Virus genome (UHGV): UHGV-0135234 | Source: a virus | DNA: 36,533 nucleotides | Reading direction: 5' to 3' (one strand) | In this document: piece by piece, positions 6,769 to 32,000 of the stretch | Numbering within the stretch: position 1 is the first letter of the stretch | Layout of the letters: every line of letters begins with the position of its first letter | Program-made: the position numbers and the translations under genes | Notes under the pieces: model-generated | Told to the model about the DNA's origin: nothing | Seen by the model: only the letters and a program-made list of their open reading frames with translations | Databases searched by the model: none

Positions 6769-6797
6769 TTGATTTCGTGTCTTATGTGGTTTTTAAT
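6769..6797 (+). promoter_or_regulatory. putative internal promoter for nin-like operon
   Basis: -35 TTGATT (6769..6774), 17-bp spacer, -10 TTTAAT (6792..6797), directly followed by operator. Confidence 0.4.
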
Positions 6798-6811
6798 TAC
6801 CTCAGAGGTAA
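6797..6811. promoter_or_regulatory. operator palindrome TTACC-N5-GGTAA overlapping SD of downstream gene
   Basis: ttacctcagaggtaa; ends 4 nt before ATG 6815. Confidence 0.55.
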
Positions 6812-6814
6812 ATC

Positions 6815-7159
6815 ATGAGAAAACAGATACAGGCTCTTGGTCGACTCAAAACAGGCCAGATGAACAAAACAGAATCTGCGTATTGCCAGCACCTTGAGCA
6901 GCGTAAACGTGCAGGGGAAATAGCCTGGTATCGATTCGAGGGTATCAAGCTGCGGTTAGCTGACAACACGTTCTATACGCCAGATTTCGCTGTGATGCTC
7001 GCCACCGGCGAGATGGAACTGCACGAAGTGAAAGGTTTCTGGACCGACGACGCCAGGGTGAAAACCAAAGTCGCCGCAGATCAGTATCCGTTCCGAATCA
7101 TCGGGGTAACGGTTAAGCCAAAGAAAGCAGGTGGTGGCTGGAAAATCGAAGAGTTCTGA
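6815..7159 (+). CDS. DUF1064-like PD-(D/E)XK nuclease-fold protein
   Basis: 114 aa; FYTPDF...ELHEVKG motif pattern. Confidence 0.6.
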   Translation: MRKQIQALGRLKTGQMNKTESAYCQHLEQRKRAGEIAWYRFEGIKLRLADNTFYTPDFAVMLATGEMELHEVKGFWTDDARVKTKVAADQYPFRIIGVTVKPKKAGGGWKIEEF

Positions 7160-7220
7160 ATCGACGATCTTTTTAGTTATCAATGTAATCAATAAGTTAT
7201 GTGGATAAGCGAGGGTAAAG

Positions 7221-7778
7221 ATGGAAAGTAATATCAAAGGGTTAGTTGCCGCCGGGCATGAGATGGCTTCGGAACTGAAAGCAGAATGTGGTGCCGTTGA
7301 TATGCGCAGTGTGGCAAAGCTGATCAGCGATTTGGCAACGCAACTGGAAGTGCAACTGGTGCGTGCTAATGCGCTGGCCGAAGACCAGCAGAAAGCGATT
7401 GAGTCAATTAAGCAGGCTGATGCAGCTGTTAAGTTGGCACACGAGAAGTTTTCAGCGCTTGCGGCGGAGAATGCGGGGCTAAAGGCGATATGTGATGACC
7501 GTCGCAGATTCATCATGAATGGGGTGCAGATGGGTTATATCAAGGTGCCAGCAGCGGAAACAGATCCAGACCTTGAGACAATTCGCATTGCTATATCACC
7601 ACAAAAGCCCATTCCAGCCACCGATGCTTTCCTGACTGAAATTGAACGCAAAGCAATCCGAAAGTTCATTAACAGCATTGAACACATCCTGCGTGACAAG
7701 CTGTCTCCGTATGACACCGAAGAGATGCTTGAGGCTATTCGTATTTTTCTGGAAGAACAGAGTGGTGAGCAAAAATGA
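7221..7778 (+). CDS. hypothetical phage protein (coiled-coil)
   Basis: 185 aa; GAGGGT SD; stop overlaps next start (ATGA). Confidence 0.6.
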   Translation: MESNIKGLVAAGHEMASELKAECGAVDMRSVAKLISDLATQLEVQLVRANALAEDQQKAIESIKQADAAVKLAHEKFSALAAENAGLKAICDDRRRFIMNGVQMGYIKVPAAETDPDLETIRIAISPQKPIPATDAFLTEIERKAIRKFINSIEHILRDKLSPYDTEEMLEAIRIFLEEQSGEQK

Positions 7779-8890
7779 CGATCACAAAACAACGGGTAGA
7801 AGAAATCATATCCCGCATTGAAATGTATGGGCATGGTGCAGGGTATACCGCCGAAGAGGTTTATGACCTGGCTGTACTGGCGATGAATTTATCAAATATC
7901 GCAAACCTGAAGCGATACGAGCTTGATATGGAAGGTTGCGACTCGTGCGGTCAGGATTGTGGCGCTGACATGACTGAAGATTCTGATGGCGATTATGTCC
8001 TGTTTGATGACGTGGTTAAGTTGTTTGATTTTGATACAACCACTCAGAAGTTAGAAAGCCCAGCAAAGGAGGCAACCAGGGAGCAAGATGATTATCAGGC
8101 ACTGCGTGCTAAGGCAGAAAAAGCAACGTGTGGTGAGTGGTCGCTCGAATATGGAAAGGGCCGATTTGATGGTGATGATGCGCTAATTCATCGTGAAGTT
8201 GCTGGATATATTCCCATTTGCAGAATTGAAGGAGCGCATCCTGAAAGCGGTTTCGATGAAGATTTCCAAACTGAACAGCAGGCCAATGCTGAATTCATCG
8301 CCGCAGCCAATCCGGCTACTGTGCTGGCGCTTCTGGATGAACGGGAAAGAAACCAGCAATACATCAAACGCCGCGACCAGGAGAACGAGGAAATTGCGCT
8401 AACGGTAGGGAAGCTGCGTGTTGAGCTGGAAGCAGCAAATAAGCGCATAGCAGAACTGGAAGCCGAACCTGTAAGCCAAGCTTACAACTTGGCAGAATTA
8501 ATCGAAGGCATGGAAGTTTCCATTGATGTAAGCACTTGTGATGCTGATTTAGGTAATCGCTATTTCGGCACCGTCACTGAGGCGTTAGAACTTGATACGG
8601 CCAAGAATGGTTACATCCTCCTGGTTCAGGACGCAGAGCCAAACTTCGATGTAAATGGCAACTATCCGGTAACTCCGGATGGTTGGATAAGCTGTAGTGA
8701 TCTAATGCCGGAAGACACCAAAATGTTACTGGCATTTAGTCAAGGTGAAATCGTGGCAGCATATTGGAACTGGGTTGTAAATCCAATTGATTACAAAAAA
8801 TATAGAGCTTTCACGTATTTATCAGGAAATATCTTGGATGACGTAACTCACTGGATGCCGCTACCAGAGCCGCCGCAGGAGGCGAAATGA
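7775..8890 (+). CDS. Ead/Ea22-like protein with C-terminal DUF551-like region
   Basis: 371 aa; central block (EWSLEYGKGRFDGDDALIHREVAGYIPICRIEG...ANPATVLALLDERERNQQYIKRRDQENEEIA) typical of Ea22-like proteins; C-terminus ...WMPLPEPP. Confidence 0.65.
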   Translation: MTITKQRVEEIISRIEMYGHGAGYTAEEVYDLAVLAMNLSNIANLKRYELDMEGCDSCGQDCGADMTEDSDGDYVLFDDVVKLFDFDTTTQKLESPAKEATREQDDYQALRAKAEKATCGEWSLEYGKGRFDGDDALIHREVAGYIPICRIEGAHPESGFDEDFQTEQQANAEFIAAANPATVLALLDERERNQQYIKRRDQENEEIALTVGKLRVELEAANKRIAELEAEPVSQAYNLAELIEGMEVSIDVSTCDADLGNRYFGTVTEALELDTAKNGYILLVQDAEPNFDVNGNYPVTPDGWISCSDLMPEDTKMLLAFSQGEIVAAYWNWVVNPIDYKKYRAFTYLSGNILDDVTHWMPLPEPPQEAK

Positions 8891-9081
8891 TGGATGTAAA
8901 AGAGAAGGTTTTGCAGGTGATGCGTTCCCGGGCAGCCCTGCAAGATAAAGCTCTCGGCGGGGAATATCCATTCAGGATGGCAACCTGGAATTTGCGGTTG
9001 GCAATGGAGAAGGAATTTCCTGATGAAGAATGGCGTTCGGCAGATTTGCGCAAAATTCTTATGGAGCTGGCTAAAGACTGA
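8887..9081 (+). CDS. hypothetical phage protein
   Basis: 64 aa; ATGA-coupled to upstream gene; GGAGG SD. Confidence 0.5.
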   Translation: MMDVKEKVLQVMRSRAALQDKALGGEYPFRMATWNLRLAMEKEFPDEEWRSADLRKILMELAKD

Positions 9082-9146
9082 GCAGTATCCAAAGATACCT
9101 ATGCCAGCCGGATTGGTCAGGCGGTATGGAGACTGGAGGTGCGGTA

Positions 9147-9428
9147 ATGGCTAACCTGCAACTTGCAGTCAAAGGTGAATACTTCGATGCCATGATTCGC
9201 GGAGAGAAAACGGAAGAGTATCGCTTGTGTAATGACTACTGGAATAAGCGCCTCGTTAACCGTAAGTATGACCGCCTGATTATCACAAAGGGATATCCGA
9301 AGCGCGACGATTCCAGTCGTAGAATAGACGCCCCGTATGAAGGGTATGAAATCAAGACAATCACACATCCGCACTTCGGCGATAAACCGGTAAATGTGTT
9401 CGCGATAAAGGTAAATATTGATGGCTAA
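9147..9428 (+). CDS. ASCH-domain protein
   Basis: ORF 9126..9428; ATG at 9147 with GGAGGT SD; LAVKGEYFDAMIRGEKTEEYR matches ASCH hallmark. Confidence 0.6.
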   Translation: MANLQLAVKGEYFDAMIRGEKTEEYRLCNDYWNKRLVNRKYDRLIITKGYPKRDDSSRRIDAPYEGYEIKTITHPHFGDKPVNVFAIKVNIDG

Positions 9429-9759
9429 ATCAGCAGCAGAGCGCAAAGCCGCTCAGAGAGCCAGACAAGCTGCATCTGGTGTGCGTAAGCTGGAAATTGT
9501 GCTTGATGCTCAGGAAATTGAAATGCTGGAGCGTAACTGTGCCACGCGTCGCCCCGGGCGTGCGCCTTACGAATTTGGTGAGTATATAGCGTTATTGATC
9601 CGCCAGGATGATGCACGCGTGCACGGGCGTATAAAATCGATCAGCAGAAAACGTTGCGGTAAGTGCGGCGAGAGAGTTCCAGTTAATTCATGCCCGTGTA
9701 ATGGTGACTCGCAATGCTGGGTGACTAAAGGCTGGCATGAAACGAAATTAATAGTGTGA
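9421..9759 (+). CDS. Cys-rich small protein (possible zinc-binding regulator)
   Basis: 112 aa; C-terminal CGKCGERVPVNSCPCNG; last gene before packaging operon. Confidence 0.5.
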   Translation: MAKSAAERKAAQRARQAASGVRKLEIVLDAQEIEMLERNCATRRPGRAPYEFGEYIALLIRQDDARVHGRIKSISRKRCGKCGERVPVNSCPCNGDSQCWVTKGWHETKLIV

Positions 9760-9808
9760 CATGTTACGAGTAGATTATGCATGATGAATTTGATGGGTTT
9801 TGAATACT

Positions 9809-9834
9809 GCCGCCAACTATGGCGGCTTTATTTT
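9809..9834 (+). terminator. rho-independent terminator upstream of terS
   Basis: gccgcc-aactat-ggcggc followed by TTTATTTT. Confidence 0.65.
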
Positions 9835-9845
9835 GCATGGTACTA

Positions 9846-9860
9846 TTACCACAACGGTAA
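9846..9860. promoter_or_regulatory. operator palindrome TTACC-N5-GGTAA upstream of terS
   Basis: ttaccacaacggtaa; preceded by TACTAT -10-like hexamer; direct repeat CTATTACCAC at 9843 and 9861. Confidence 0.55.
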
Positions 9861-9877
9861 CTATTACCACGGTGGTT

Positions 9878-10474
9878 ATGATGCCTGCTGAACCTAAAAC
9901 CTATAAACGCAAATCAACGCAATTTAAGCCGCTCACAGCAATGCAGGAGGCTTATTGCCAGTCATACATCAAAACGCCTGAAAACCAGACTCAGGCAGCG
10001 ATTAACGCAGGATTCTCCCCAAATACAGCGGCAGTTAAAGCCAGTGTCATGATGCGCGATGAACGCATTCAAAAACGGATTGCCGAGTTGATGGAGGAGC
10101 GCAACAAACGAATGCGCGTCAGTGCTGATTACGTTCTCATGCGCCTGGTGGAGATCGACCAGATGGACGTGATCGACATCCTCAACGACGATGGTAGCCT
10201 TAAGCCAATCCGCGAGTGGCCGAAAATCTGGCGCACTACGCTTAGTGGCTTTGATCTGTCATCGACCATCATGAACATGAACGAGGATTCGATAGAGACA
10301 ATCCTCAAAAAAATTAAATGGCCTGACAAGGTGAAGAACCTCGAACTGATTGGTAAGCACGTCGACGTCAACGCATTCAAAGAACGCCTGGATGTTAATG
10401 TGAATGTGACAATTGCTGATCGCATAGCGGCAGCCAGGAAGAGACTGAAAGAACGTCAGGATGGCAATCAGTGA
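9878..10474 (+). CDS. terminase small subunit
   Basis: ORF 9800..10474; ATG at 9878 or 9881 (upstream part contains the terminator); pattern resembles small-terminase family (QEAYCQSYIKTPENQTQAAINAGFSPNTAAVKASVMMRDERIQKRI). Confidence 0.75.
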   Translation: MMPAEPKTYKRKSTQFKPLTAMQEAYCQSYIKTPENQTQAAINAGFSPNTAAVKASVMMRDERIQKRIAELMEERNKRMRVSADYVLMRLVEIDQMDVIDILNDDGSLKPIREWPKIWRTTLSGFDLSSTIMNMNEDSIETILKKIKWPDKVKNLELIGKHVDVNAFKERLDVNVNVTIADRIAAARKRLKERQDGNQ

Positions 10475-11946
10475 CAGATACAGCGTTATCTCCTGAAGAG
10501 CAGTTAATCGAGGATATTGCAGGGTTCACTCACGATCCGCTTGGCTATGCCCTCTATGCGTTCCCGTGGGGGGAAGAGGGTACTGAACTGGCACATGCCA
10601 CCGGTCCACGTCAGTGGCAGGCCGATGCGTTCCGAGAGATACGTGATCACCTGCAGAATCCAGAGACGCGATATCAGCCGCTTATGCTGGCACGCGCTTC
10701 TGGTCACGGTATTGGTAAATCCGCATTCATCTCAATGCTGATCAACTGGGGCATGTCCACTTGCGAGGATTGTAAGGTCGTGGTGACCGCCAACACCGAC
10801 AACCAGCTACGAACGAAGACCTGGCCGGAAATTATCAAGTGGTCGAACCTTGCCATCACGAAAGACTGGTTTACCTGTACCGCTACCGCGATGTACAGCA
10901 ATGATCCTGGGCACGACAAGCGGTGGCGAGCTGACGCAATCCCCTGGTCTGAGCACAACACTGAGGCATTCGCCGGACTACACAACGAGCGCAAACGCAT
11001 CATCGTGGTTTTCGACGAAGCATCCAACATTGCCGATCTGGTGTGGGAGGTAGCAGAGGGTGCGCTGACGGACGAAGACACCGAAATCATCTGGGTGGCG
11101 TTCGGGAACCCGACGCGTAATACCGGGCGTTTCCGCGAATGTTTCCGCAAATATAAACACCGCTGGAAGTGTGCGCAGATTGACAGCCGGACGGTGGAAG
11201 GCACTAACAAACAGCAGTTGCAGAAATGGGTTGATGACTACGGGGAAGACAGCGACTTCGTTAAAATCCGTGTGCGCGGCATATTCCCTGATGCATCTGA
11301 ATTGCAGTTTATCCCTACCGGTCTTACTGATGAGGCAATGAAACGGGTGGTAACCGCTGCGCAGGTGGCGCATGCTCCGGTGATAATCGGTGTTGACCCG
11401 GCATATTCAGGCGTTGATGACGCGGTGATATACCTGCGGCAGGGGCTACACAGTAAGGTGCTGTGGACTGGCAACAAGACTACCGACGATCTGATTATGG
11501 CGAAGCGTATCGCTGACTTTGAAGACCAGTATCAGGCTGACGCGGTGTTCATCGACTTCGGTTACGGAACCGGTTTGAAGTCAATCGGTGATGGCTGGGG
11601 GCGTACATGGCAACTTGTTCCGTTCGGCGGTGCGTCCACTGACCCGCAGATGCTTAACAAGCGTGGGGAGATGTTCAACTCATGTAAGACATGGCTGAGG
11701 CTGGGCGGCATGCTGGATGACCAGGAAACTGCAGACGACCTGTCGGCGGCAGAGTACAAAGTTCGCGTGGACGGTAAAATCGTTATCGAACCGAAGGAGG
11801 ATATCAAGGAGCGGCTTGGGCGTTCGCCGGGTAAAGGCGATGCGCTACTGCTGACGTTTGCGTTCCCTGTGTCGAAGCGTCTGCGAATTCCCGGGCAGCA
11901 GAACCAGCAAGGCAAGGCCATCACAGATTACGATCCCTATGCTTAA
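10471..11946 (+). CDS. terminase large subunit
   Basis: 491 aa; GTG start overlapping terS stop (GTGA); Walker A-like ASGHGIGKS; position and size. Confidence 0.85.
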   Translation: MTDTALSPEEQLIEDIAGFTHDPLGYALYAFPWGEEGTELAHATGPRQWQADAFREIRDHLQNPETRYQPLMLARASGHGIGKSAFISMLINWGMSTCEDCKVVVTANTDNQLRTKTWPEIIKWSNLAITKDWFTCTATAMYSNDPGHDKRWRADAIPWSEHNTEAFAGLHNERKRIIVVFDEASNIADLVWEVAEGALTDEDTEIIWVAFGNPTRNTGRFRECFRKYKHRWKCAQIDSRTVEGTNKQQLQKWVDDYGEDSDFVKIRVRGIFPDASELQFIPTGLTDEAMKRVVTAAQVAHAPVIIGVDPAYSGVDDAVIYLRQGLHSKVLWTGNKTTDDLIMAKRIADFEDQYQADAVFIDFGYGTGLKSIGDGWGRTWQLVPFGGASTDPQMLNKRGEMFNSCKTWLRLGGMLDDQETADDLSAAEYKVRVDGKIVIEPKEDIKERLGRSPGKGDALLLTFAFPVSKRLRIPGQQNQQGKAITDYDPYA

Positions 11947-11997
11947 TCCGCTGGTGGGGATAATGTCGTTGATATCCTCTGGTGAGGATAAAACAAA

Positions 11998-12023
11998 GCC
12001 AGCTCATAGGCTGGCTGTTTGTG
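11998..12023. terminator. bidirectional terminator between convergent terL and Gp49-like gene
   Basis: gccagc-tcatag-gctggc hairpin; T-rich on minus side (TTTGTTTT). Confidence 0.5.
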
Positions 12024-12032
12024 ACATGTCAC
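12021..12032. repeat. 12-bp palindrome GTGACATGTCAC (copy 1)
   Basis: Perfect palindrome abutting terminator and stop of Gp49-like gene; identical copy at 29532..29543; near copy at 9756..9767. Confidence 0.6.
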
Positions 12033-12036
12033 GGTG

Positions 12037-12417
12037 TTATTGCTCGCTTAGCTTCTGCTTCAGCAAGTAACCTTCGAGCATCCAGATTTTGTTTACAGCA
12101 TTCTGCCGGGCAATCTTCCGACCAATTTCTGCATCAAAGTTTTCCGGGCTTGCACAGGCGCTCTCTCCGGTGACGGTGAAGCCATTCTTCAGCACCAGTA
12201 CGCAGAAAGTGAGCAACTTCAATGGTGATAAATCACGATCGCCTTCTTCTGGTTTTTCCCTGCCACAATATTCGTTGCTGGAAATGGCACCATTACGTCC
12301 ATCATAAGCAGTAAAGTAATGCTCGCTTTTAATCACGTCTTCGATGTGCTGCGGAGTGATTCTCGGAGCGGTTTTGCCTTTCTCAACGATTTCTTTTTCG
12401 ATTTGCTGGTCGTTCAT
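12037..12417 (-). CDS. Gp49-like phage protein (unknown function)
   Basis: 126 aa; AAGGTG SD; reverse-oriented inside late region; conserved block LTFCVLVLKNGFTVTGESACASPENFDAEIGRKIA. Confidence 0.55.
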   Translation of the reverse strand: MNDQQIEKEIVEKGKTAPRITPQHIEDVIKSEHYFTAYDGRNGAISSNEYCGREKPEEGDRDLSPLKLLTFCVLVLKNGFTVTGESACASPENFDAEIGRKIARQNAVNKIWMLEGYLLKQKLSEQ

Positions 12418-12615
12418 AATCTCACCTTAAAAAAATGCCCGGCGAACCGGGCGAACTGGAAGCAATGAGTTATGCCTTCCGTGGCTGTACGGGTTTACAG
12501 CATGAAGTCATCGCAATGGCGTCCTGCTGTAAAAAGGGCGGTGATAGTCCTTCAAGGGAAACCATCACCGCCAAGCACCTGGAACTTCTGGCATCACGGT
12601 CCTTAGGCGTGATTC

Positions 12616-12692
12616 TGGCGTGGCATGCAGGATTCGAACCTGCGACCAACCGCTTAGAAGGCGGTTGCTCTGTCCAACTGAGCTAATGCCAC
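12616..12692 (-). tRNA. tRNA-Arg (anticodon UCU)
   Basis: 77 nt GTGGCATTAGCTCAGTTGGACAGAGCAACCGCCTTCTAAGCGGTTGGTCGCAGGTTCGAATCCTGCATGCCACGCCA; 7-bp acceptor stem, D-arm GCTC/GAGC, anticodon loop CTTCTAA, T-loop TTCGAAT, encoded CCA. Confidence 0.9.
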
Positions 12693-13021
12693 AACGCTGA
12701 GAGCACTGGTTTGGCTCGATATCAGGTAGGGTGGAACAGCCCGCTAATATCCAATGCTCTCATCGTTGTACCCTCGTCTCTTCCGAGGCGTCACACCGAA
12801 TCGCCGGGATGGTGAATCCCCGTGCGCGGAATAAAACCGCTCGACTTGCACATTCCGGCTACCTGGTTCGTTTGCCCGAGCAAGGGAGGGTGCCCCTTAA
12901 ACGTATCCAGACCGCTATCGGCGCATGTGCCATACGCCGTACTGCTCAAAATAAAAGCTCACTCCACCTGTTCAATTTAACGACAAGCCAGTCAGGTTAG
13001 TAACCGGAATGAACTCTTTGG

Positions 13022-13036
13022 TTACCTGAAAGGTAA
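13022..13036. promoter_or_regulatory. operator palindrome TTACC-N5-GGTAA upstream of head operon
   Basis: ttacctgaaaggtaa. Confidence 0.55.
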
Positions 13037-13126
13037 TAATTTGTGCGTTAAATGTCAACTATCTACGATAAATAAATCATATGTGGTTAAATTGGTAATA
13101 ATTTAATTGCGTACGGAGTCATTGAT

Positions 13127-13333
13127 ATGTGCATGGGTAGCTCACCATCAGTGCCTGCAACACCAGAAGTTCAGGCAGCACCACAGGAGCAGGATGCCGC
13201 CGTTGTTGATGCCCGCGACGAAGAAACTCGTCGCCGTCGCGCTGCTGCTGGTCGTAGTTCTACGCTGCTTACCGGTTCTCAGGGCGACACATCAACCGCT
13301 AATACCAGCGGTAAAACGCTACTTGGTCAGTAA
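13127..13333 (+). CDS. hypothetical small protein preceding portal
   Basis: 68 aa; same initiation context (cggagtcattga + ATG) as the portal gene. Confidence 0.4.
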   Translation: MCMGSSPSVPATPEVQAAPQEQDAAVVDARDEETRRRRAAAGRSSTLLTGSQGDTSTANTSGKTLLGQ

Positions 13334-13347
13334 CCGGAGTCATTGAA

Positions 13348-15320: not shown

Positions 15321-15322
15321 TC

Positions 15323-16018: not shown

Positions 16019-16026
16019 GAGAGGAA

Positions 16027-17508: not shown

Positions 17509-17518
17509 GGTGATATCG

Positions 17519-24826: not shown

Positions 24827-26625
24827 GTTACTTTGGCCTTAATCCAGTAAACCAGAATCAGCAGCTTGACGAAGCAGCATCAAATCCAGCTGGCTTTAAC
24901 AGCGATGTTGGTTTTTTCGACAATGCTGTAGGAGCGGCATTGTCTGGTTTGTACTCCGGGCTGGTGGCAAAGCCAGATCAGTTGCTATGGGCAGGGATGG
25001 ATAAAATCGTATCCCCGATTGCTCAGTTTGTTAACGAAAACACCTCGCTCAATGATACTTCAGTTTCATACATTGCCGAGCAGAGAAAACTAGCAGAGCA
25101 GCAGGTTAAGCGGCTGACGCCTGATGCCGCGACAACTGGAACCGCTGGGCAGGTTCTTTATGGGTTGTTCGATATGGGCGGGCAGGCTGTTGTTGGTACA
25201 ACGCTCGGTGGTCCGGTCGGAGGTGCTGCGGCGGTAACTTCGCTACAGGGTTTTTCTGAGTTTGAACGGCTGACAGCACAGGGTGTTGATTTCAGGACGG
25301 CGCAGGAAGCGGGATTAGTGCAGGGCATTACTGCTGGTGCCGGAACGCTGATCCCTATAAGCCTCGGGTTACGTGCTGGTGGTGCGCTGGCGGAAGGTGT
25401 GGCGGCTCAGCTTGCACGGACGGGTGAAAGTTCAGTGCGACGCGCCGCAGCAACAGCAGTACGTGCAACGCCAGATATTGCCTATGCCGCAGGTACAAAT
25501 ATTGCGTTCGGTATGGCACAGCGTGGGCTTACTGCAAAAACGCTTCGTGATGGTGGCTATAGCGAAATGGCTAATCAGTATGATGTGTTGGATCGACAGG
25601 CAATTGCTATTGATGCTGTTCTTGGAGTGGCGTTTGGTGGTGTCGGCAGATTTATTAACTCTCGCGGCGAGTCTACAAGCGCACCAAATTTTTCACCAGT
25701 TGATGTCGATGCTGCACTGGCGGCGAATGCCGCTCATCATGCTGAAATTGATATTGCTCCCGGTGTGCCGATCAACGTGCTTTCGCGTAATTCGCACATT
25801 CAGGCTCTGCGAAAAGCCATGTCTGATGTTAGCCAGGGGAGACCTGTAGACGTTGCCAGCATTGTTGAGTCTGCATCTTTCAGTGAAATTCCTGGGCGCA
25901 AGAGTCTGCTTTCTCAGGCAGTTAATGAGGCTCTGTCATCTGTAGATGATGGAGTAACGGCGCGCGCTATAGAAAATCGGTTGCTTGAAGAACAGGCCGC
26001 GCAGCTTTTGCCGCGTGGCGATAGACAGGTTTACCAGTCTGAAATCGCTAATAGCCAACGAATTATTGAAAATCTCACTGAACAGCGCGCACAAATTCTT
26101 GCAGAAGAGCCAACCGGTAGCGGTAAAGCTTTGTCTCGTGCTCGATCAGATAAACAGGCCAGACTTCGCGATATTGATCAACGAATCCGGCAGGCACAAG
26201 AACGCCTGGAGTTTTCCCGTAACGCGTTGGCACCGCACGAGCCTGGCGGTCAGTTTTTTGAAGCTCGAGCAGAACTGGCACGACGACAGCAGGCAGAAAG
26301 TGAACTTAATGCTCAGGCTGTTTCATTCTATAAAACAGCAGAGGTCAGGACGCCAGACGAAGTAGCTCCTTTTGAGCCCGGTAAGATATTGCAACAGACA
26401 GAACAAAAAATGATGGCAGATCCGGCAGGAGATATTGATCTGCGTATAGCTGAAGACTCGCTGCTTGAATCTCCGGACATGATAATCACCGTGCTGGATG
26501 ATGATGGTAATCCACAATCGCGCAGTGCGCGTGAAGTACTGGATGAAGCGAACAGGGAAAGTGAGCAGGCAATACAGGATTCCAGCCTGTTTGATGTTGC
26601 TGTGGCGTGTTTCTTGAGAGGTTAA
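24823..26625 (+). CDS. large internal virion/ejection protein
   Basis: 600 aa; Gly/Ala-rich hydrophobic segments; ATGA-coupled. Confidence 0.65.
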   Translation: MSYFGLNPVNQNQQLDEAASNPAGFNSDVGFFDNAVGAALSGLYSGLVAKPDQLLWAGMDKIVSPIAQFVNENTSLNDTSVSYIAEQRKLAEQQVKRLTPDAATTGTAGQVLYGLFDMGGQAVVGTTLGGPVGGAAAVTSLQGFSEFERLTAQGVDFRTAQEAGLVQGITAGAGTLIPISLGLRAGGALAEGVAAQLARTGESSVRRAAATAVRATPDIAYAAGTNIAFGMAQRGLTAKTLRDGGYSEMANQYDVLDRQAIAIDAVLGVAFGGVGRFINSRGESTSAPNFSPVDVDAALAANAAHHAEIDIAPGVPINVLSRNSHIQALRKAMSDVSQGRPVDVASIVESASFSEIPGRKSLLSQAVNEALSSVDDGVTARAIENRLLEEQAAQLLPRGDRQVYQSEIANSQRIIENLTEQRAQILAEEPTGSGKALSRARSDKQARLRDIDQRIRQAQERLEFSRNALAPHEPGGQFFEARAELARRQQAESELNAQAVSFYKTAEVRTPDEVAPFEPGKILQQTEQKMMADPAGDIDLRIAEDSLLESPDMIITVLDDDGNPQSRSAREVLDEANRESEQAIQDSSLFDVAVACFLRG

Positions 26626-26630
26626 ATTAA

Positions 26631-29105
26631 ATGAGACAGGAATGTATACAAGCGGTCCAGCAGGCGGCGCAGCGCACGTTAACGGCGCGAGAAATACAGA
26701 ACATTGAAGACCGCATTTATCGAAATATGCGCTCCATTGCTCGTGATGACCCGATGTCGTGGCGACAACTTTCCGAATCAGAACGGTTGTATCGTGCAGC
26801 ACAATTGGCATCTGAAGAATTACAGCGAGAAGCGGCATTAAAGAAACGTCGTGTGGCCCTCACTATAGCCGCACGTCAGAGATTGGATAAATTTATCAAT
26901 AGCTATCAAGGGGCTGATGGGAAACTTGGCGCTCTTAACCGTACTATTGCTTTTAATGCAGACGGTAAATCGAATTTCCTCTCTGTTGAATCCAGAACAA
27001 AAGCCACCCGTGATTATGCATTGAGTCAATTGCAGGAGGCATTCGAAGCAGTTGATCCTCGCTTTTTTGGTCTGTTTGAAGATGAAGCGGGCGTACGTGA
27101 CCTGGTATATGAAATGCGGGGGCAAAATACTGGCAATGCTAAAGCAAGAAAAGGTGCTAAGGCGTGGAGAGAAGTTACAGAGCTGCTGCGCCGCCGGTTT
27201 AATGATGCTGGTGGGGACATTGGCTATCTCGAAAACTGGGGGATCCCTCAACATCATTCTATGGAAAAGGTTGGGGCGGTATCAAAGGATAAGTGGGTTA
27301 GCGATGTTATAGGTAAGCTGGATCGCAAATATTATACCCGAGCCGATGGACAACTGATGAACGATGCCGAGTTGTCTGAATTTCTTGGAGAGGCTTATAA
27401 CACGATCGCTACTGGTGGGCTGAATAAGCTTACTGATACCGGAATGCGAATTTCCGGCGCACGTGCTAACCGTGGTAATGCATCACGACAGATACATTTC
27501 AAAGATGCAGATTCCTATCTGCAATATCAGCAACTTTATGGCGATCGCTCTCTATGGGAAATCATGGTCGGTCACCTGGAAGGTATCAGTAAAGATATTG
27601 CGCTGGTGGAAACATATGGCCCAAACCCCGATCATGTTTTCCGCTCCCTTCTTGATCAGGTTAAGGCAGAAACGGCAACAGCTAACCCGAGTAAAACCGG
27701 TAGCGTCGAGCGTCTGGCGAACAAAACAGAGAACTTGTACAACTTTATTTCCGGAAAAACACAGCCTGTAGCGAATCCGCACATCGCGCGATGGTCTGAC
27801 AATATCCGCAACTGGCTGGTTGCCAGCAGACTCGGATCCGCGTTGCTGTCATCGTTCTCTGATCTTGGAACCATGTATCTGTCTGCGAAGGTTACCAACC
27901 TTCCAATGAACCAGTTATTTCGCAACCAGCTTGAAGCTATGGACCCAACGAACCGTACAGAACTTGCGCGGGCGCGCCGCGCTGGCCTGGCGATGGAATC
28001 TCTACTTGGCAGCGTTAACCGCTGGGCGATGGATAATATGGGGCCGTCTGTGTCTCGTTGGGCGGCAACGGCGGTAATGCGTGCCAGTGGGCTTACAGCA
28101 TGGTCAGATGCGCACAAGCGCGCCTATGGCGTAACCATGATGGGAAGCCTGGGAGAAGTAGTGTCACGGACACCAGACCTTCGTAGCCTCGATGACTCTG
28201 ATTTTCGTATCCTGAAAAGCAAAGGGATTACTGACACAGACTGGAGCGTATGGAAGCTGGCGCAACAGGAGGACTGGGGGAACGGTAATAATACGATGCT
28301 GACACCGGAAAGCATTATGCGTATCCCTGATTCAGCAGTTAAACATCTTGGTGAGCCTGAACGCGTGAAATTTGAGGCAATGCGTAAACTGCTCGGTGCC
28401 GTAACTGAAGAAGTTGATATGGCTGTTATTACACCGGGCGCACGTGAACAGATGTTCGTAGGGTCTGGTCTTCAGCGTGGAACATGGAAAGGTGAATTAA
28501 CGAGAAGTGTTTTCCTGTTTAAATCGTTCCCTATCTCGGTAGTTATGCGTCACTGGCATAGAGCTATGGGGATGCCGTCTGCTGGTGGGCGTGCGGCATA
28601 TATAGCAACGTTTTTAGCAAGCACAACCATGCTTGGTGCTCTTTCCATGCAGATTACTGATCTTATTAATGGGAGAAATCCAAAAGAAATGACCGGTGAC
28701 AACATGGTTAAATTCTGGATAAATGCATTTTTAAAAGGTGGTGGGGCAGGGTTGTATGGTGATTTTCTTTTCTCTGACCACACCAGGTACGGGAGCGGCG
28801 CACTAGCGTCGATGCTTGGCCCGGTAGCTGGTCTGGTTGATGACGTAGTGAAGATTGCTCAGGGCATACCGTTAAATGCTGTGGAAGGGAAGAATGAGCA
28901 GACTGGTGGTGATCTGGTTAAGCTTGGGAAAGGTTTGATGCCTGGTGCGAATCTCTGGTACTTGAAGGCGGCTCTCGATCACATGATCTTTAATCAGATG
29001 CAGGAGTATTTTTCACCAGGCTATTTGCGTAAAATGGAGCAACGTTCGAAGAAAGAGTTTAACCAGACATACTGGTGGCGACCTCAGGATGTCACTCCGC
29101 AATAA
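26631..29105 (+). CDS. large internal virion/ejection protein
   Basis: 824 aa; last large protein of virion block. Confidence 0.65.
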   Translation: MRQECIQAVQQAAQRTLTAREIQNIEDRIYRNMRSIARDDPMSWRQLSESERLYRAAQLASEELQREAALKKRRVALTIAARQRLDKFINSYQGADGKLGALNRTIAFNADGKSNFLSVESRTKATRDYALSQLQEAFEAVDPRFFGLFEDEAGVRDLVYEMRGQNTGNAKARKGAKAWREVTELLRRRFNDAGGDIGYLENWGIPQHHSMEKVGAVSKDKWVSDVIGKLDRKYYTRADGQLMNDAELSEFLGEAYNTIATGGLNKLTDTGMRISGARANRGNASRQIHFKDADSYLQYQQLYGDRSLWEIMVGHLEGISKDIALVETYGPNPDHVFRSLLDQVKAETATANPSKTGSVERLANKTENLYNFISGKTQPVANPHIARWSDNIRNWLVASRLGSALLSSFSDLGTMYLSAKVTNLPMNQLFRNQLEAMDPTNRTELARARRAGLAMESLLGSVNRWAMDNMGPSVSRWAATAVMRASGLTAWSDAHKRAYGVTMMGSLGEVVSRTPDLRSLDDSDFRILKSKGITDTDWSVWKLAQQEDWGNGNNTMLTPESIMRIPDSAVKHLGEPERVKFEAMRKLLGAVTEEVDMAVITPGAREQMFVGSGLQRGTWKGELTRSVFLFKSFPISVVMRHWHRAMGMPSAGGRAAYIATFLASTTMLGALSMQITDLINGRNPKEMTGDNMVKFWINAFLKGGGAGLYGDFLFSDHTRYGSGALASMLGPVAGLVDDVVKIAQGIPLNAVEGKNEQTGGDLVKLGKGLMPGANLWYLKAALDHMIFNQMQEYFSPGYLRKMEQRSKKEFNQTYWWRPQDVTPQ

Positions 29106-29114
29106 GGAACAACA

Positions 29115-29528
29115 ATGAAGGAATTATTGCTGTTATCGGTATTTTTGATATCCGCTTGCTCGACATCCTATGATGTTTATGACGGTGTTGATAAGGCATA
29201 TTGCGACAAAGTTAAAATGGATTTTTCTCTTGCCAAGACGGCGAAGGATAGTTGTATTGATCACTACGTCAAGACTTATACCAAGCCAGCCTCATCGGCA
29301 TCTGATATTGCTGAAGGTGCTGTGTTTGAGTGTAACAAGGTGATATCCATCGCAGCGAGTTCTTCATACGATGCTGCTGTATGTGCAATGGCTGAAAGAA
29401 ACGGCATGTCAGTGCAAAAAATTAATAGCATGATAAGCAGTAATGACGAAGCCAAAATAAGAACTGATATCAGCTCGGTGAAAAAAGATGCCATGAACAG
29501 AGTTGTAAAATATCAGTCATCTTTATAA
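29115..29528 (+). CDS. lipoprotein (candidate superinfection-exclusion moron)
   Basis: 137 aa; signal peptide MKELLLLSVFLISAC with lipobox ISAC, Ser at +2; AT-rich; followed by palindrome and terminator. Confidence 0.6.
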   Translation: MKELLLLSVFLISACSTSYDVYDGVDKAYCDKVKMDFSLAKTAKDSCIDHYVKTYTKPASSASDIAEGAVFECNKVISIAASSSYDAAVCAMAERNGMSVQKINSMISSNDEAKIRTDISSVKKDAMNRVVKYQSSL

Positions 29529-29531
29529 GTC

Positions 29532-29543
29532 GTGACATGTCAC
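29532..29543. repeat. 12-bp palindrome GTGACATGTCAC (copy 2)
   Basis: Identical to 12021..12032; abuts terminator 29545..29568. Confidence 0.6.
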
Positions 29544-29544
29544 A

Positions 29545-29568
29545 GGCCGCTTTCGCGGCCTTGTTTTT
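29545..29568 (+). terminator. rho-independent terminator
   Basis: ggccgc-tttc-gcggcc followed by TTGTTTTT. Confidence 0.65.
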
Positions 29569-29728
29569 AACGAATGCCACCGCCACCCGGGCGGGAATCC
29601 GCAGAACGCCCACCGCAGCGGGAGCCGTCAGCAGCAGTGTCGCTGTCGTGCTGACAACGACCGGCAAAGGCCTGAGTTGAAGCTACCAGAGACAACAAAA
29701 CGAACAGTGCAGCAAATGCTTTTTTCAT
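29567..29728 (-). CDS. small secreted peptide (Sec signal peptide, 2 Cys, Gly-rich C-terminus)
   Basis: ORF 29567..29800; ATG at 29728 gives 53 aa MKKAFAALFVLLSLVASTQAFA|GRCQHDSDTAADGSRCGGRSADSRPGGGGIR; weak SD. Confidence 0.35.
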   Translation of the reverse strand: MKKAFAALFVLLSLVASTQAFAGRCQHDSDTAADGSRCGGRSADSRPGGGGIR

Positions 29729-29800
29729 TGTGAAATTTCCATCTATAAGCCACCTCAATGTGGCGTCAATGAGTGTAGCACTGACTTTTGTTTCGCCCAC

Positions 29801-29821
29801 AAAAAAGCCCGCAGCGCGGGC
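29801..29821 (-). terminator. rho-independent terminator after cargo gene B
   Basis: Minus strand gcccgc-gct-gcgggc followed by TTTTTT. Confidence 0.6.
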
Positions 29822-30261
29822 TATTCTTCTTCATCATTAAAAAGCGGATTGTTGTTTCCATCTGATGAAAGGAAAGGTATGTGTTCTCTTGAAAATCCAA
29901 CAATGACAATTTCATTATCATTTTTTGCATAATGAATGCATTCATTAGAATGCCTTCCGCCAGGGTTGAAATTTAAGTTAATGGTATAATTCTTAAATGT
30001 GTTTGGATACCATGTTGGCCCACAATGATAATGCCAATAATTCTCTTGCTCATAATTGTCTGAGCCGGGAATTTTATCATGGTTATCATCAACCCACGAG
30101 GGCTTGTTTTTTCCAACAAGCGCCCTTCCATTGGCAACATCCTCTAAAAAACTTTGTATGATTTTTATTTCATCATCAGTAAGGAAAGGTCCGTCTACAG
30201 CGAAAGGGGTGTTGCTTTCCCCATGTAGAAAACTATTAGATATTCTAATGTTAAACTTCAA
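29821..30261 (-). CDS. AT-rich cargo protein of unknown function (gene B)
   Basis: ORF 29821..30402 has no internal Met; CAGGAG SD + 6 nt + TTG at 30261 gives 146 aa (MKFNIRISNSFLHGESNTPFAVDGPFLTDDEIKIIQ...NYWHYHCGPTWYP...FNDEEE); upstream 47 codons of the long ORF use rare codons and overlap gene A. Start uncertain. Confidence 0.4.
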   Translation of the reverse strand: MKFNIRISNSFLHGESNTPFAVDGPFLTDDEIKIIQSFLEDVANGRALVGKNKPSWVDDNHDKIPGSDNYEQENYWHYHCGPTWYPNTFKNYTINLNFNPGGRHSNECIHYAKNDNEIVIVGFSREHIPFLSSDGNNNPLFNDEEE

Positions 30262-30281
30262 GGAAAACTCCTGATGTGCTT

Positions 30282-30449
30282 CTATTTGGAGCGAAATGCC
30301 GCCTTGAAGTCGCTGAAAGATGTTCCTGTCTGGTAAACCATATCCTTGTCGCGCTCTTTGCTTGCGCGGCCAAGCATAACTTTTCCAATGACATCCCAGC
30401 ATTGCTTGGCTTGTTCATTGTGCTGAGTACGATTTTTCAACGCTGTCAT
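30282..30449 (-). CDS. small protein (gene A), first gene of operator-controlled cargo operon
   Basis: 55 aa MTALKNRTQHNEQAKQCWDVIGKVMLGRASKERDKDMVYQTGTSFSDFKAAFRSK; AGGAGG SD 6 nt before ATG; host-like codon usage; not in ORF track (<60 aa). Confidence 0.4.
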   Translation of the reverse strand: MTALKNRTQHNEQAKQCWDVIGKVMLGRASKERDKDMVYQTGTSFSDFKAAFRSK

Positions 30450-30461
30450 ATCGCGCCTCCT

Positions 30462-30476
30462 TTACCTTTAAGGTAA
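30462..30476. promoter_or_regulatory. operator palindrome TTACC-N5-GGTAA between promoter and gene A
   Basis: ttacctttaaggtaa immediately upstream of SD. Confidence 0.55.
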
Positions 30477-30504
30477 TAGTACGCTATTCACCCACAGTCT
30501 GCAA
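30476..30504 (-). promoter_or_regulatory. putative promoter of cargo operon
   Basis: Minus strand -35 TTGCAG (30499..30504), 17 bp, -10 TACTAT (30476..30481), then operator. Confidence 0.45.
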
Positions 30505-30513
30505 TCTGTACAG

Positions 30514-30540
30514 AATTATTTAAAGGCACATCCCTGTGCC
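30514..30540 (-). terminator. terminator-like hairpin after Bro-N gene
   Basis: Minus strand ggcaca-ggga-tgtgcc followed by TTTAAATAATT. Confidence 0.4.
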
Positions 30541-30548
30541 GCCGCCCG

Positions 30549-31235
30549 TCAGAAGAACCCAGCCTTGTCGTTGATGTACTCCGCGTGGGTCTGGATATCA
30601 CGCAGGCATTTGCTCACACCAACAATGTAGCAGAACATGGTGGTCAGCTCCGCCGCCGCGCCCGATACGTCGTGCCCGTCTTCCTGTAACTGGTTCAGCA
30701 GATTCATCAGCAGTGAGTTCTCCGTCAGGCCGAGAACACCAGACGGAGAATGAATCAGGCTGCGGTAGCCGGGCTTCAGTGGGGCACTGTAGGTTTTGTT
30801 CTCTATCTTCATTGCCTGCATCACTGCTGATGCTGTGGCGTTGGCTACCTGGTCGGCAACTATCTTTATGCGTTCTTCCTGCGGGAGCGAGTTTTTAATG
30901 TAACTTCCGGTGCGGCGGATCTGAGGAAGAACCTCACCTGTAACCCATTTACGAAAGCGGTAGGGGATAGTGCCTGGTGTCACTGCGTCGCGGCAGCGGA
31001 GGATCAGTGTGTAGAGGCCTGACTCGTTGATAATATTGGTTTCACCTTGACGGCCTAAGTTAAATTTAGCCCTTTCATCATCATCAAGAGATTTTATTGA
31101 CATAGTGGGGTTTGTCAGTTGAAGAGCTTTAATAACGTCTTTGGCAACAAACCAAGGATTTCCATCAATAACAATGGCTCGAATGGTGGCTTCTGATTCA
31201 AAATGAAAAACAGATGGGGTTACGTTAGCAGTCAT
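30549..31235 (-). CDS. Bro-N domain antirepressor-like protein
   Basis: ORF 30549..31388; ATG at 31235 (MTANVTPSVFHFESEATIRAIVIDGNPWFVAKDVIKALQL... classic Bro-N N-terminus); AAGGTGA SD; upstream extension is a structured leader. Confidence 0.8.
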   Translation of the reverse strand: MTANVTPSVFHFESEATIRAIVIDGNPWFVAKDVIKALQLTNPTMSIKSLDDDERAKFNLGRQGETNIINESGLYTLILRCRDAVTPGTIPYRFRKWVTGEVLPQIRRTGSYIKNSLPQEERIKIVADQVANATASAVMQAMKIENKTYSAPLKPGYRSLIHSPSGVLGLTENSLLMNLLNQLQEDGHDVSGAAAELTTMFCYIVGVSKCLRDIQTHAEYINDKAGFF

Positions 31236-31388
31236 AGTGATCACCTTTGTAGTTAGGTTAATCACCACTACCGACGCCAATCGGTTGGTGGTGAACTGTG
31301 CAGGGTTGGCGTAACCGGCTACAAAGGACCCGGCGCACCTTTCGGTGCCCCCACACAGCCCACCATAGAATAGGTGCGCTTTACACAT

Positions 31389-31408
31389 AAAAAAACCGCT
31401 TATGCGGC
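31389..31408 (-). terminator. intrinsic terminator/attenuator in Bro leader
   Basis: Minus strand gccgc-ataa-gcggu followed by seven U. Confidence 0.45.
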
Positions 31409-31501
31409 ATATGTGCCTCTGTAGTAACCCGGGACGCCAATCCCGGCACTGGATTTTGCCAGTGCCCGATTACTATGGCACAAGAGGAGTGCGATGTAAA
31501 T

Positions 31502-31516
31502 TTACCGAAAAGGTAA
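31502..31516. promoter_or_regulatory. operator palindrome TTACC-N5-GGTAA
   Basis: ttaccgaaaaggtaa directly downstream of putative Bro promoter. Confidence 0.55.
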
Positions 31517-31544
31517 TAATAAACACTCTACTTGGTAATTGCAA
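31516..31544 (-). promoter_or_regulatory. putative promoter for Bro-N gene
   Basis: Minus strand -35 TTGCAA (31539..31544), 17 bp, -10 TATTAT (31516..31521); same architecture as gene A promoter. Confidence 0.4.
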
Positions 31545-31547
31545 ACC

Positions 31548-31805
31548 TTATCTGGTTTGTTTTCGTAATTGTTCGGCACAATAGTCGAGATGTGTTTGCA
31601 GATCCCGCATAGACATCTGTGAGCTGGTGACGTAGTTAATCAGTGCAGTCAGTTCGGCAAGTGGGCCATCGACATTAAATCCATCCTTATCGAGATCCCG
31701 GAGTAATTTCATCAAGTGCGATCCCTCCACCAGTGACCTGACGCCTCCCGGCGTGTGAATCCTTTCGGTAAATCCGTCTTCCAGTGGATAGTGATACTGC
31801 TGCAT
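31548..31805 (-). CDS. small antirepressor-domain protein, paralog of Bro C-terminal domain; LexA-box controlled
   Basis: ORF 31548..31823 (TTG); ATG at 31805 gives 85 aa with GGAG SD; aligns with C-terminus of 30549..31235 protein (IH(S/T)P.GV..L.E.S.LM.LL..L..DG..V.G..AELT...RD.QTH..Y). Confidence 0.55.
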   Translation of the reverse strand: MQQYHYPLEDGFTERIHTPGGVRSLVEGSHLMKLLRDLDKDGFNVDGPLAELTALINYVTSSQMSMRDLQTHLDYCAEQLRKQTR

Positions 31806-31826
31806 CTTATCTTCTCCATGCAATAA

Positions 31827-31842
31827 CTGTATATTTATACAG
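31827..31842. promoter_or_regulatory. LexA box (SOS operator) CTGTATATTTATACAG
   Basis: Perfect CTGT-N8-ACAG with AT-rich spacer; 10 nt upstream of SD of the 85-aa gene. Confidence 0.75.
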
Positions 31843-31881
31843 TATCAAATAATTTGTTTGCTATCCAGCACGTTTTGCAAA

Positions 31882-31896
31882 TTACCCGAAAGGTAA
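31882..31896. promoter_or_regulatory. operator palindrome TTACC-N5-GGTAA
   Basis: ttacccgaaaggtaa between 85-aa gene and divergent tailspike. Confidence 0.55.
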
Positions 31897-32000
31897 TATC
31901 TATTCGTATTTACAGTCTTTCTATCCATATGTGGTTTTTCAGGTAATAGAATAACCAGATATGCGGCGCAACGGGTGCTGCGACTATCTGGAGATTTAAC

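Follow-up and report, generated by a model that had tools for sequence, protein, structure and literature searches.

A conserved 14-bp dyad upstream of the late operons of an epsilon15/phiV10-like phage genome

The virus genome UHGV-0135234 (36,533 nucleotides; the whole of this stretch is referred to below as the window) carries a short recurrent element, TATGTGG, just upstream of several of its rightward operons, and it is this element, which we find to be one half of a 14-bp dyad, that is analysed here. By megablast the window is about 97% identical to E. coli O157 typing phages 9 and 10, vB_EcoP_PAS61, ZX5 and phiV10, and about 80% identical to Salmonella phage epsilon15; on the strength of these identities we assign it to the epsilon15/phiV10-like, Uetakevirus-type temperate podophages. 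Its gene order is that of phiV10 and epsilon15:

Leftward: early operon, in the same order as in phiV10 and epsilon15.
3764-4348, minus strand: rep, coding for a homologue of SPC32H Rep (PDB 5D50, E 4e-42).
4503-4733, plus strand: gene in the cro position, coding for a Cro-like protein and followed by replication genes.
6815 to 9759, plus strand: middle operon, from a DUF1064 gene to a gp49-like gene, followed by terS and terL.
Between terL and the gp3 operon, minus strand: a leftward gene and tRNA-Arg.
13127 to about 29500, plus strand: gp3-portal-head-tail operon.
Between the head-tail operon and the tailspike gene, leftward: antirepressor genes.
32001, plus strand: tailspike gene.
From about 34686, plus strand: lysis genes.

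The palindrome TTACC-N5-GGTAA, the operator of Rep, is present in 10 copies in the window against 0.01 expected, at sites that match the repressor-binding annotations of the epsilon15 record. Rep itself is only 42-45% identical between lineages, and despite this divergence the sequence of its operator is as invariant in the relatives compared as that of the dyad described below.

An earlier note on this DNA had placed TATGTGG on the plus strand at 6783, 7198, 13080 and 31928, ahead of four rightward operon starts, and all four coordinates are exact, as are the distances to the start codons (32, 23, 47 and 73 nt, respectively). The longer word TATGTGGTT occurs exactly at 6783, 13080 and 31928 and, as had also been stated, is followed in these three places by five nucleotides and TTACC or GGTAAT. 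The genome-wide enrichment that the note proposed as a check is not seen for the 7-mer overall, but is seen for its upstream placement and for the 9-mer. TATGTGG occurs six times on both strands of the whole window, against 4.1 expected and with six reached in 25 of 100 shuffles; the further copies lie within the tailspike open reading frame (ORF), at 32762 and 33990. Four of the six fall in the stretches just 5' of rightward genes that follow a gap, which total about 1,200 nt and in which 0.1 copies would be expected. The 9-mer TATGTGGTT is found three times against 0.15 expected, and all three copies are in these same upstream stretches (0.005 expected). From these two counts we conclude that the placement of TATGTGG is not random.

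Comparison of the upstream regions of phiV10, epsilon15, SPC32H, two Klebsiella phages and Enterobacter phage Tyrion identified TATGTGGTT as the right half of a 14-bp dyad; the real unit is this dyad, and not the repeated word of seven to nine nucleotides. Its consensus, drawn from 31 distinct copies, is A-[T/A]-[C/T]-C-A-T-A-T-[A/G]-T-G-G-T-T (A-W-Y-C-A-T-A-T-R-T-G-G-T-T). In these copies the terminal GGTT hardly varies, the left half is less strictly kept and the middle G of TATGTGG is either A or G, while positions 1/14, 3/12, 4/11, 5/10, 6/9 and 7/8 of the 31-site matrix are complementary. The ideal dyad, AACCATATATGGTT, is a perfect palindrome and is found as such upstream of the lysis cassette in phiV10 and Tyrion; exact matches to it in IMG/VR are mostly background. 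Since the outer 4-5 bp are conserved around a variable centre, the dyad resembles the site of a dimeric DNA-binding protein, and we consider it highly probable that it is a protein-binding site of some sort.

A position weight matrix (PWM) was trained on the late-promoter sites of epsilon15, SPC32H, the Klebsiella phages and Tyrion, with no E. coli phages in the training set. Its top three matches in the window lie at 31923 (21.3 bits), 13075 (20.2 bits) and 34614 (18.1 bits), and six matches reach at least 13 bits against 1.1 expected, a number attained in none of 300 Markov shuffles. Of the four sites originally grouped as one family, those at 13080 and 31928 are full members and that at 6783 is a half-site, whereas the one at 7198 is a chance match; two good members, before the lysis genes and past the cro-like gene, had been missed. 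The sites considered are the following:

13075..13088, plus strand: dyad AATCATATGTGGTT of the gp3/portal/head-tail operon, including TATGTGG at 13080; second-best PWM match.
13097..13102, plus strand: putative -10-like hexamer AATAAT of gp3, starting 9 nt after the dyad (GATAAT in Buttiauxella).
31923..31936, plus strand: tailspike dyad ATCCATATGTGGTT, including TATGTGG at 31928; best PWM match.
31942..31952, plus strand: tailspike block GGTAATAGAAT, N5 after the dyad, with a putative -10, TAGAAT, at 31947-31952.
34614..34627, plus strand: lysis dyad AACCATAAATGGTT; third-best PWM match, absent from the earlier list.
4809..4822, plus strand: post-cro dyad AACCAAATCTGGTT, past the cro-like gene and a terminator, abutting the -35-like TTGATC at 4821-4826; absent from the earlier list.
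6778..6791, plus strand: middle-promoter half-dyad TGTCTTATGTGGTT, including TATGTGG at 6783, within the 17-bp spacer between the -35 TTGATT (6769-6774) and the -10 TTTAAT (6792-6797).
3650..3663, unstranded: half-dyad (minus-strand sequence AACCAAATACGCAT; 12.2 bits) within the spacer of PL, the leftward early promoter, flanked by Rep operators 3630-3644 and 3692-3706.
31544..31557, unstranded: candidate copy AACCTTATCTGGTT; 14.1 bits, its centre about 41.5 bp upstream of a putative leftward start.
7198..7206, plus strand: TATGTGGAT, not a family member.

The box stands before gp3, the tailspike gene, the lysis genes, the post-cro genes and the middle operon in phages and prophages of at least 8 host genera, among Escherichia, Salmonella, Klebsiella, Enterobacter, Citrobacter, Erwinia, Kluyvera, Buttiauxella and Scandinavium. 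It is distinct from the Rep operator, as the earlier note had maintained. The two are alike in that both are palindromic, share an ACC...GGT core and occupy the same intergenic regions, the operator reading ATTACC-N5-GGTAAT in epsilon15 and SPC32H. They differ in spacing (CC and GG are separated by N6 in the dyad and by N5 in the operator), in their flanks (AACC/GGTT versus TTACC/GGTAA) and in the AT-rich, conserved centre of the dyad; no copy of the dyad fits TTACC-N5-GGTAA even with 2 mismatches, and the two did not overlap in any scan, so we rejected the view of the dyad as a degenerate Rep operator. TATGTGG itself was likewise rejected as a -10, -35 or extended -10, since TATGTG lacks the T at position 6 and no partner hexamer lies at a proper spacing. 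At none of the sites is there a TCACA-like partner 6 nt downstream of TGTGG, as a CRP site (TGTGA-N6-TCACA) would have. The box carries no annotation in the records of epsilon15, phiV10, SPC32H, Tyrion and the Klebsiella phages, and literature searches with its string returned unrelated primers only, the epsilon15 genome and SPC32H papers lying outside their coverage, so that a mention there is possible. We take it for a real and conserved regulatory box of an ordinary kind, apparently undescribed.

In all lineages the three late operons have a common layout, in which the dyad is followed after 7-10 nt by a -10-like hexamer, there is no conserved -35, and the centre of the dyad falls about 26-30 bp upstream of the putative start. 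Before gp3, 7 genomes have the block CATATGTGGTTAAATTGGTAATAATTTAA unchanged, and the dyad reads ATCCGTATATGGTT in Erwinia and ATTCTTATATGGTT in Buttiauxella; it is followed by AAATTGGTAATAATTT (GGTGATAATTT in Buttiauxella), with the -10-like AATAAT or GATAAT, and no hexamer at 16-18 bp has more than 2/6 matches to a -35. The gap between the ant-like and tailspike genes was aligned for 5 divergent genomes of E. coli, Salmonella, Klebsiella and Enterobacter phages, and its conserved blocks are a LexA box, a short CTATCCAGCA, a Rep operator, the dyad and GGTAATAGAAT. Invariant columns make up 11/14 of the dyad and 11/11 of GGTAATAGAAT, 2/25 of the sequence between the Rep operator and the dyad, and 0/5 of that between the dyad and GGTAAT. 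The GGTAAT previously noticed after the dyad at gp3 and tailspike is indeed present, but it behaves as part of the -10 block (the invariant GGTAATAGAAT; GGTGATAATTT in Buttiauxella) and not as a Rep half-site. The lysis dyad is followed by TATTGTGTATGAT (with TATAAT in phiV10), giving a -10-like TATGAT or TATAAT.

A scan with the sigma-70 consensus detected no complete plus-strand promoter at gp3, tailspike or lysis, and no Rep operator lies on the core of these promoters even when 2 mismatches are allowed. The full Rep operators at 13022 and 31882 are situated 40-50 bp further upstream, at divergent leftward promoters (a minus-strand TTGACA facing the tRNA, and the LexA-box region before the ant-like gene, respectively). 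In most relatives the gp3, tailspike and lysis units are preceded by opposite-strand genes or by terminators, and each late operon therefore needs a promoter of its own.

Because these promoters lack both a conserved -35 and a Rep operator on their core, positive control appears the most likely form of regulation, and since the head, tailspike and lysis genes must be silent in the lysogen, an activator-dependent promoter is to be expected. Our preferred reading, to which we give a probability of roughly 0.5, is that the dyad is the site at which a dimeric phage regulator activates late promoters without a -35. A phage-encoded protein made only once Rep has been inactivated would bind the box and supply the contact that a -35 otherwise gives, and host sigma-70 RNA polymerase would then start transcription; in the lysogen the head, tailspike and lysis genes would stay silent. 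The same protein could boost delayed-early transcription from the post-cro box (at about -40) and damp early and middle transcription from boxes lying in promoter spacers (at about -20; the middle promoter and, in some relatives, PL). The earlier suggestion of a late-promoter element or activator site finds support where the box stands at structural, tailspike and lysis promoters, but not at gene 6815, which belongs to the middle operon and is not late.

The copies outside the late operons differ in their setting. The last two bases of the post-cro dyad open TTGATC, which stands 17 bp from a -10-like CAAAAT (4844-4849), with the centre of the dyad at about -40.5; this dyad is found in every relative examined, always followed by GATCTTTTT, and degenerate Rep operators flank it on both sides, one of them at 4789-4803. 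The middle promoter is flanked by full Rep operators (6735-6749 and 6797-6811); here the right half of the dyad is kept in all relatives and the full dyad is present in Tyrion (ATCCATATACGGTT, 20.3 bits). A box lying within this spacer would be expected to repress rather than to activate. PL and the middle promoter are built on the same module, namely operator, 28 nt, box, 5 nt and operator, and the PL position is occupied by a near-perfect dyad in Tyrion (AACCATATATGGAT) and by nothing of the kind in epsilon15 or SPC32H. The copy at 31544..31557, found also in phiV10 and, as AACCTTATGTGGTT (15.9 bits), in Tyrion, is held to be tentative because it shares sequence with the final codons of the ant-like ORF and the Klebsiella relatives do not show it.

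As to the protein that would bind the box, we rank the candidates only roughly: a gp49-like protein comes first, though at somewhat less than even odds, a PerC-like protein is a distinctly weaker choice and the Cro-like protein a weaker one still, the remainder falling to some other phage or host factor. The leading gene is:

9421..9759, plus strand: gp49-like ORF (112 aa), the last gene of the middle operon, before a terminator, a Rep operator and terS.

Its product matches the PHROGs family phrog_536, 'transcriptional regulator' (E 7.7e-55), is 72-81% identical in the relatives compared, and combines a strand-helix-helix pattern at the N-terminus with a Cys-rich C-terminus that has four or more conserved cysteines. 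The position before the terminase genes is that of the late regulator in many phages, including P1 with its order lpa-pacA-pacB. Sequence and profile searches of this protein against PDB gave no match, and its AlphaFold model, with a predicted local distance difference test (pLDDT) score of 56, is too poor to use; we regard it as the leading, albeit weak, candidate. The family is also present in ZF40, N15/phiKO2-like, Yersinia, Vibrio and Aeromonas phages. That one of its members, as a small ribbon-helix-helix and zinc-ribbon protein, binds a -35-replacing dyad, controls all late operons and feeds back on early and middle promoters is, taken in full, an unlikely proposition; if true, it would represent a new family of phage late-gene activators and a previously unrecognised activator system.

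The Cro-like protein (76 aa) is modelled (pLDDT 88.6) as a five-helix domain resembling those of lambda repressor, 434 and C proteins, with weak fold matches to YdaS, P22 c2, 434 and C.AhdI (template modelling (TM) scores of about 0.55-0.65, E 0.75 and above). Its recognition helix is invariant across genera and its family is confined to Uetakevirus-type phages. A homologue lies in the cro position of Psychrobacter phage pOW20-A (49% over 39 residues, E 1e-14), whose CI has an N-terminal domain homologous to Rep (E 1e-10); the cI-cro gap of that phage (9604-9740) contains three TACC-N5-GGTA palindromes, and its genome holds no dyad box. Since the operators of this homologous module are of the TACC-N5-GGTA kind and a dyad is missing, it is most probable that the Rep operators also serve the Cro-like protein. 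Sequence comparison therefore also suggests that the LexA-type CI of pOW20-A and the non-cleavable, tetrameric Rep share one DNA-binding and operator module.

The box and the PerC-like protein (693-992, minus strand) share one narrow distribution; for Pch, PMC4764244 gives no DNA consensus. A gp40-like zinc-finger protein was rejected as binder because its distribution is too wide and includes lytic phages. No homologue of P1 Lpa, of the Q-like antiterminators of ZF40 and pOW20-A or of the CII-like protein of ZF40 was found in the window. Among 120 IMG/VR loci with the gp3 box, the informative ones keep the gp49-like gene in 47/48 cases and the Cro-like gene in 6/6, and none is cleanly without a candidate gene, so these mosaics do not discriminate between the candidates. 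At one locus, on the prophage-like contig 647000262_000004 (about 1836-2030), the gp49-like gene is cut after about 37 residues while the gp3 dyad is intact; the prophage may be defective, or the protein may be able to do without its C-terminal zinc-ribbon half.

A number of points weigh against activation of late promoters by such a factor. All positions relative to +1 derive from hexamer matches. The distance between dyad and -10 varies (7, 8 or 10 nt), and the register of the dyad differs by promoter class (about -20, -27 to -30, and -40); this would be unusual for a single activation geometry, and a repressor fits equally well at some of the sites. In epsilon15 and the Klebsiella phages the left half of the tailspike dyad, TTCATA, has 4/6 matches to a -35 and stands 17 bp from TAGAAT, so that part of the conservation of this dyad could be that of ordinary promoter sequence. 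The dyad is missing from terS-terL, likewise late functions, where a Rep operator is present. A conserved hairpin in the lysis leader, described below, takes in the -10 together with the dyad's right half, which means that transcription must in some cases begin at the dyad or upstream of it. The pOW20-A comparison led us to downgrade the Cro-like protein, which makes it an unlikely factor. As for the gp49-like candidate, Pectobacterium phage ZF40 encodes a homologue that is 63-66% identical and shows no enrichment of the dyad (14 matches of at least 9 bits against 15 expected); this result is not decisive, since the putative DNA-facing strand differs (RKLEIVL versus TKLELNL).

In a rival explanation the dyad would be the operator of a negative regulator, either a second repressor or a Cro-type turn-down factor, that blocks RNA polymerase at early, middle and late promoters alike. 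At the middle promoter and at PL of Tyrion the box lies within the 17-bp spacer of a complete -35/-10 pair, a classic repressing position, and at the late promoters its centre, at about -27 to -30, overlaps the contacts of sigma region 4 and the spacer; the protein in the cro position, with its invariant recognition helix, has moreover a fold of the lambda-repressor/434/C-protein kind (TM about 0.65 at best, with weak E). We nevertheless judge this explanation unlikely. The late promoters, having no conserved -35 and only a moderate -10, would show little intrinsic activity to repress, lytic early genes that encode a repressor of all lytic operons would make little regulatory sense, and the Cro-like protein, to judge by the operators of pOW20-A, most likely acts at those of Rep.

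Still less probable, in our estimate, is the explanation that dispenses with a dedicated factor and takes the box as core promoter sequence, be it a weak -35-like hexamer, spacer or upstream DNA, that host RNA polymerase reads, in promoter modules that were duplicated in an ancestral phage. In its favour, the modules of PL and the middle promoter are clearly paralogues, the high overall conservation of the gp3 region leaves little information in its footprint, and the tailspike copies of epsilon15 and the Klebsiella phages do contain the -35-like TTCATA (the variant TCCATA is -35-like as well), 17 bp from TAGAAT. However, conservation is strongest at GGTT and the symmetric outer positions, and not in the -35-like part; several copies are perfect 14-bp palindromes, although symmetry plays no part in recognition by sigma-70; the box takes up three different registers with respect to the -10; and the lysis and gp3 copies have at most 2-4/6 matches to a -35 at the allowed spacings.

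A DNA-binding protein of the enterobacterial host is an improbable owner of the site. The box is identical in phages of many enterobacterial genera in which Rep is only 42-45% identical, but the Rep operator is just as invariant in the face of the same divergence, and the invariance of the box is therefore no argument for a host factor. To our knowledge, no host site matches the dyad, be it that of CRP (TGTGA-N6-TCACA), DnaA, IHF, Fis or GntR-type regulators (TGGT-N-ACCA), or the paired NrdR boxes.

That the element acts in RNA, as a small hairpin, leader structure or RNase III site, is very improbable, for although AACCAUAUAUGGUU can form a 5-bp hairpin and the right half of the lysis dyad lies in a larger conserved one annotated as an RNase III site in epsilon15, the left-half variants (ATTC, AATC, ATAC) are not accompanied by compensatory changes in the right half, and gp3, tailspike, the post-cro site and the middle promoter show no comparable leader pairing with the box.

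The lysis-leader hairpin (about 34616-34685 of the window, plus strand; 24755-24817 in L002) comprises 28 pairs and is conserved in six phages. In the 5' arm of the window 4/4 substitutions keep the pairing, being compensatory or wobble-compatible, and the many G-U pairs indicate a plus-sense RNA structure; it is this hairpin that the epsilon15 record annotates as an RNase III site. The -10 and the right half-site of the dyad fall in its 5' arm, the Shine-Dalgarno ribosome-binding site in its 3' arm. Transcripts from the putative late start would lack the 5' arm, while read-through transcripts would contain it and have their ribosome-binding site sequestered. The hairpin is better seen as a separate feature that overlaps the promoter; it could block translation of read-through transcripts and so safeguard against untimely translation of the lysis genes; fold-back inhibition in IS10 is an analogous case. 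The tailspike leader downstream of the -10 has only a 4-bp GC stem, without covariation.

Activation through a box that stands in for the -35, as preferred here, has its closest parallel in the Lpa-controlled promoters of phage P1. These also serve several late operons and have a short inverted repeat immediately before the -10, the P1 record giving a '-22 region' 4-9 nt before the -10 signal and no -35 signal; the gene for the activator, moreover, immediately precedes the terminase genes in P1, which is also the place of the gp49-like gene here. The differences are that the box of the window is 14 bp long (AACCATATATGGTT) and that of P1 9 bp (AAGTNACTT, near -22), that the centre of the former, at about -26.5 to -29.5, lies about 5-8 bp further upstream, and that copies are also found at early and middle promoters in the window. 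The best tblastn match to P1 Lpa in the window has an E of 9.9, and hhalign gave it a probability below 1% against the profiles of the gp49-like and Cro-like proteins. By analogy, the dyad would work like an Lpa-type box without being a member of that family, its positions relative to +1 being those set by the hexamers.

Factor-specific elements that replace or adjoin the -35 are familiar from the middle promoters of T4, with their MotA box at -30, and from the Q-binding elements of lambda between the -35 and -10. Unlike T4, the window has no MotA or AsiA that we could see. It differs from the lambda Q/qut system in that no homologue of the Q-like proteins of ZF40 and pOW20-A was detected (best E 0.08, inside structural genes), that there is no terminator after the late promoters, and that several promoters with short leaders run straight into genes, instead of one. 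In the 14-bp operators of the 434 type and the C-boxes of restriction-modification systems, too, conserved outer bases surround the variable centre of a short dyad, to which small helix-turn-helix (HTH) dimers bind, activating or repressing according to register, and the model of the Cro-like protein resembles this fold class; the only small HTH_3-type protein of the window, however, is that same Cro-like protein, which most likely uses the Rep operators.

In the sources within reach we found no description of how late genes are switched on in epsilon15-, phiV10- and SPC32H-type phages, the characterised regulators being Rep, Ant and LexA. The phiV10-type phages are used for O157 typing, and such prophages are common in the genomes of E. 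coli, Salmonella and Klebsiella. A late-promoter box would offer a direct lead to the late regulator, compact promoters for phage-inducible reporters, and a better annotation of transcription units in the genus; the gain is incremental, as it would add one more case of phage late genes under positive control.

Several smaller observations concern the regions around these sites. At the position of 7198 the relatives that do not infect E. coli (those of Salmonella, Klebsiella and Enterobacter) have TTATACGGGTAAG or TTAAACGGGTAAG, and the site is not among the PWM matches listed for the window, the lowest of which scores 11.9 bits; it was rejected as a member of the dyad family on these grounds. 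The overlapping sequence at 7200-7208, TGTGGATAA, is the reverse complement of the consensus DnaA box TTATCCACA and is restricted to the E. coli lineage, and since it is absent from the homologous position elsewhere, a function as a DnaA box is doubtful. Beside it, at 7175-7195, between the DUF1064 gene and an eae-like gene, there is a conserved IHF-like site (ATCAATGTAATCAATAAGTTA; ATCAATAAnTTA in relatives), and the epsilon15 record annotates IHF at the homologous position.

The leftward promoter-like site TTGCAA-17-TATTAT (31544..31516), at which the tentative copy AACCTTATCTGGTT lies, faces an RNA and antirepressor module. Two Rfam matches above the gathering score, C4 antisense RNA (RF01695, 79.5 bits; 31284-31370, minus strand) and the Hfq-binding RNA isrK (RF01394, 74.7 bits; 31389-31465, minus strand), are found directly upstream of an ORF with a Bro-N domain (30549-31388, minus strand). 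Together they look like an antirepressor module of the P1 immI or Gifsy isrK kind, which the window has besides an ant-like gene of the SPC32H type (31548-31823, minus strand). A LexA-box-like sequence (CTGTATATTTATACAG, 31827-31842) lies between this ant-like gene and the Rep operator at 31882 and is conserved in all aligned relatives; it fits the control of SPC32H ant, which is reportedly exerted by LexA together with Rep.

Upstream of gp3, a perfect minus-strand -35, TTGACA (13053-13058), is conserved, and the Rep operator 13022-13036 is placed where its -10 and start would fall. This is probably a leftward promoter under Rep control, serving tRNA-Arg(tct) (12616-12692, minus strand) as well as the gp49/66-family gene at 12037-12417; given its position under TTGACA, the operator upstream of gp3 probably serves this leftward promoter and not that of gp3.

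Past the gp49-like gene, the region 9810-9880 contains a rho-independent terminator (GCCGCCAACTATGGCGGCTTTATTTT), then a Rep operator (9846-9860), a near-operator (9864-9878) and an ATG at 9880; terS probably starts at this ATG, as in epsilon15 and Tyrion, and not at the TTG 9800 annotated in phiV10. Directly past the post-cro dyad, finally, 4883-5084 (plus strand) encodes a small Cys/His-rich protein (KRYYTGKPCKHGH...NGHCVEC), whose domain recurs widely across unrelated phages, both lytic and temperate, of Vibrio, Xanthomonas, Pseudomonas and Klebsiella; some of the annotations there name it endonuclease VII or HNH.

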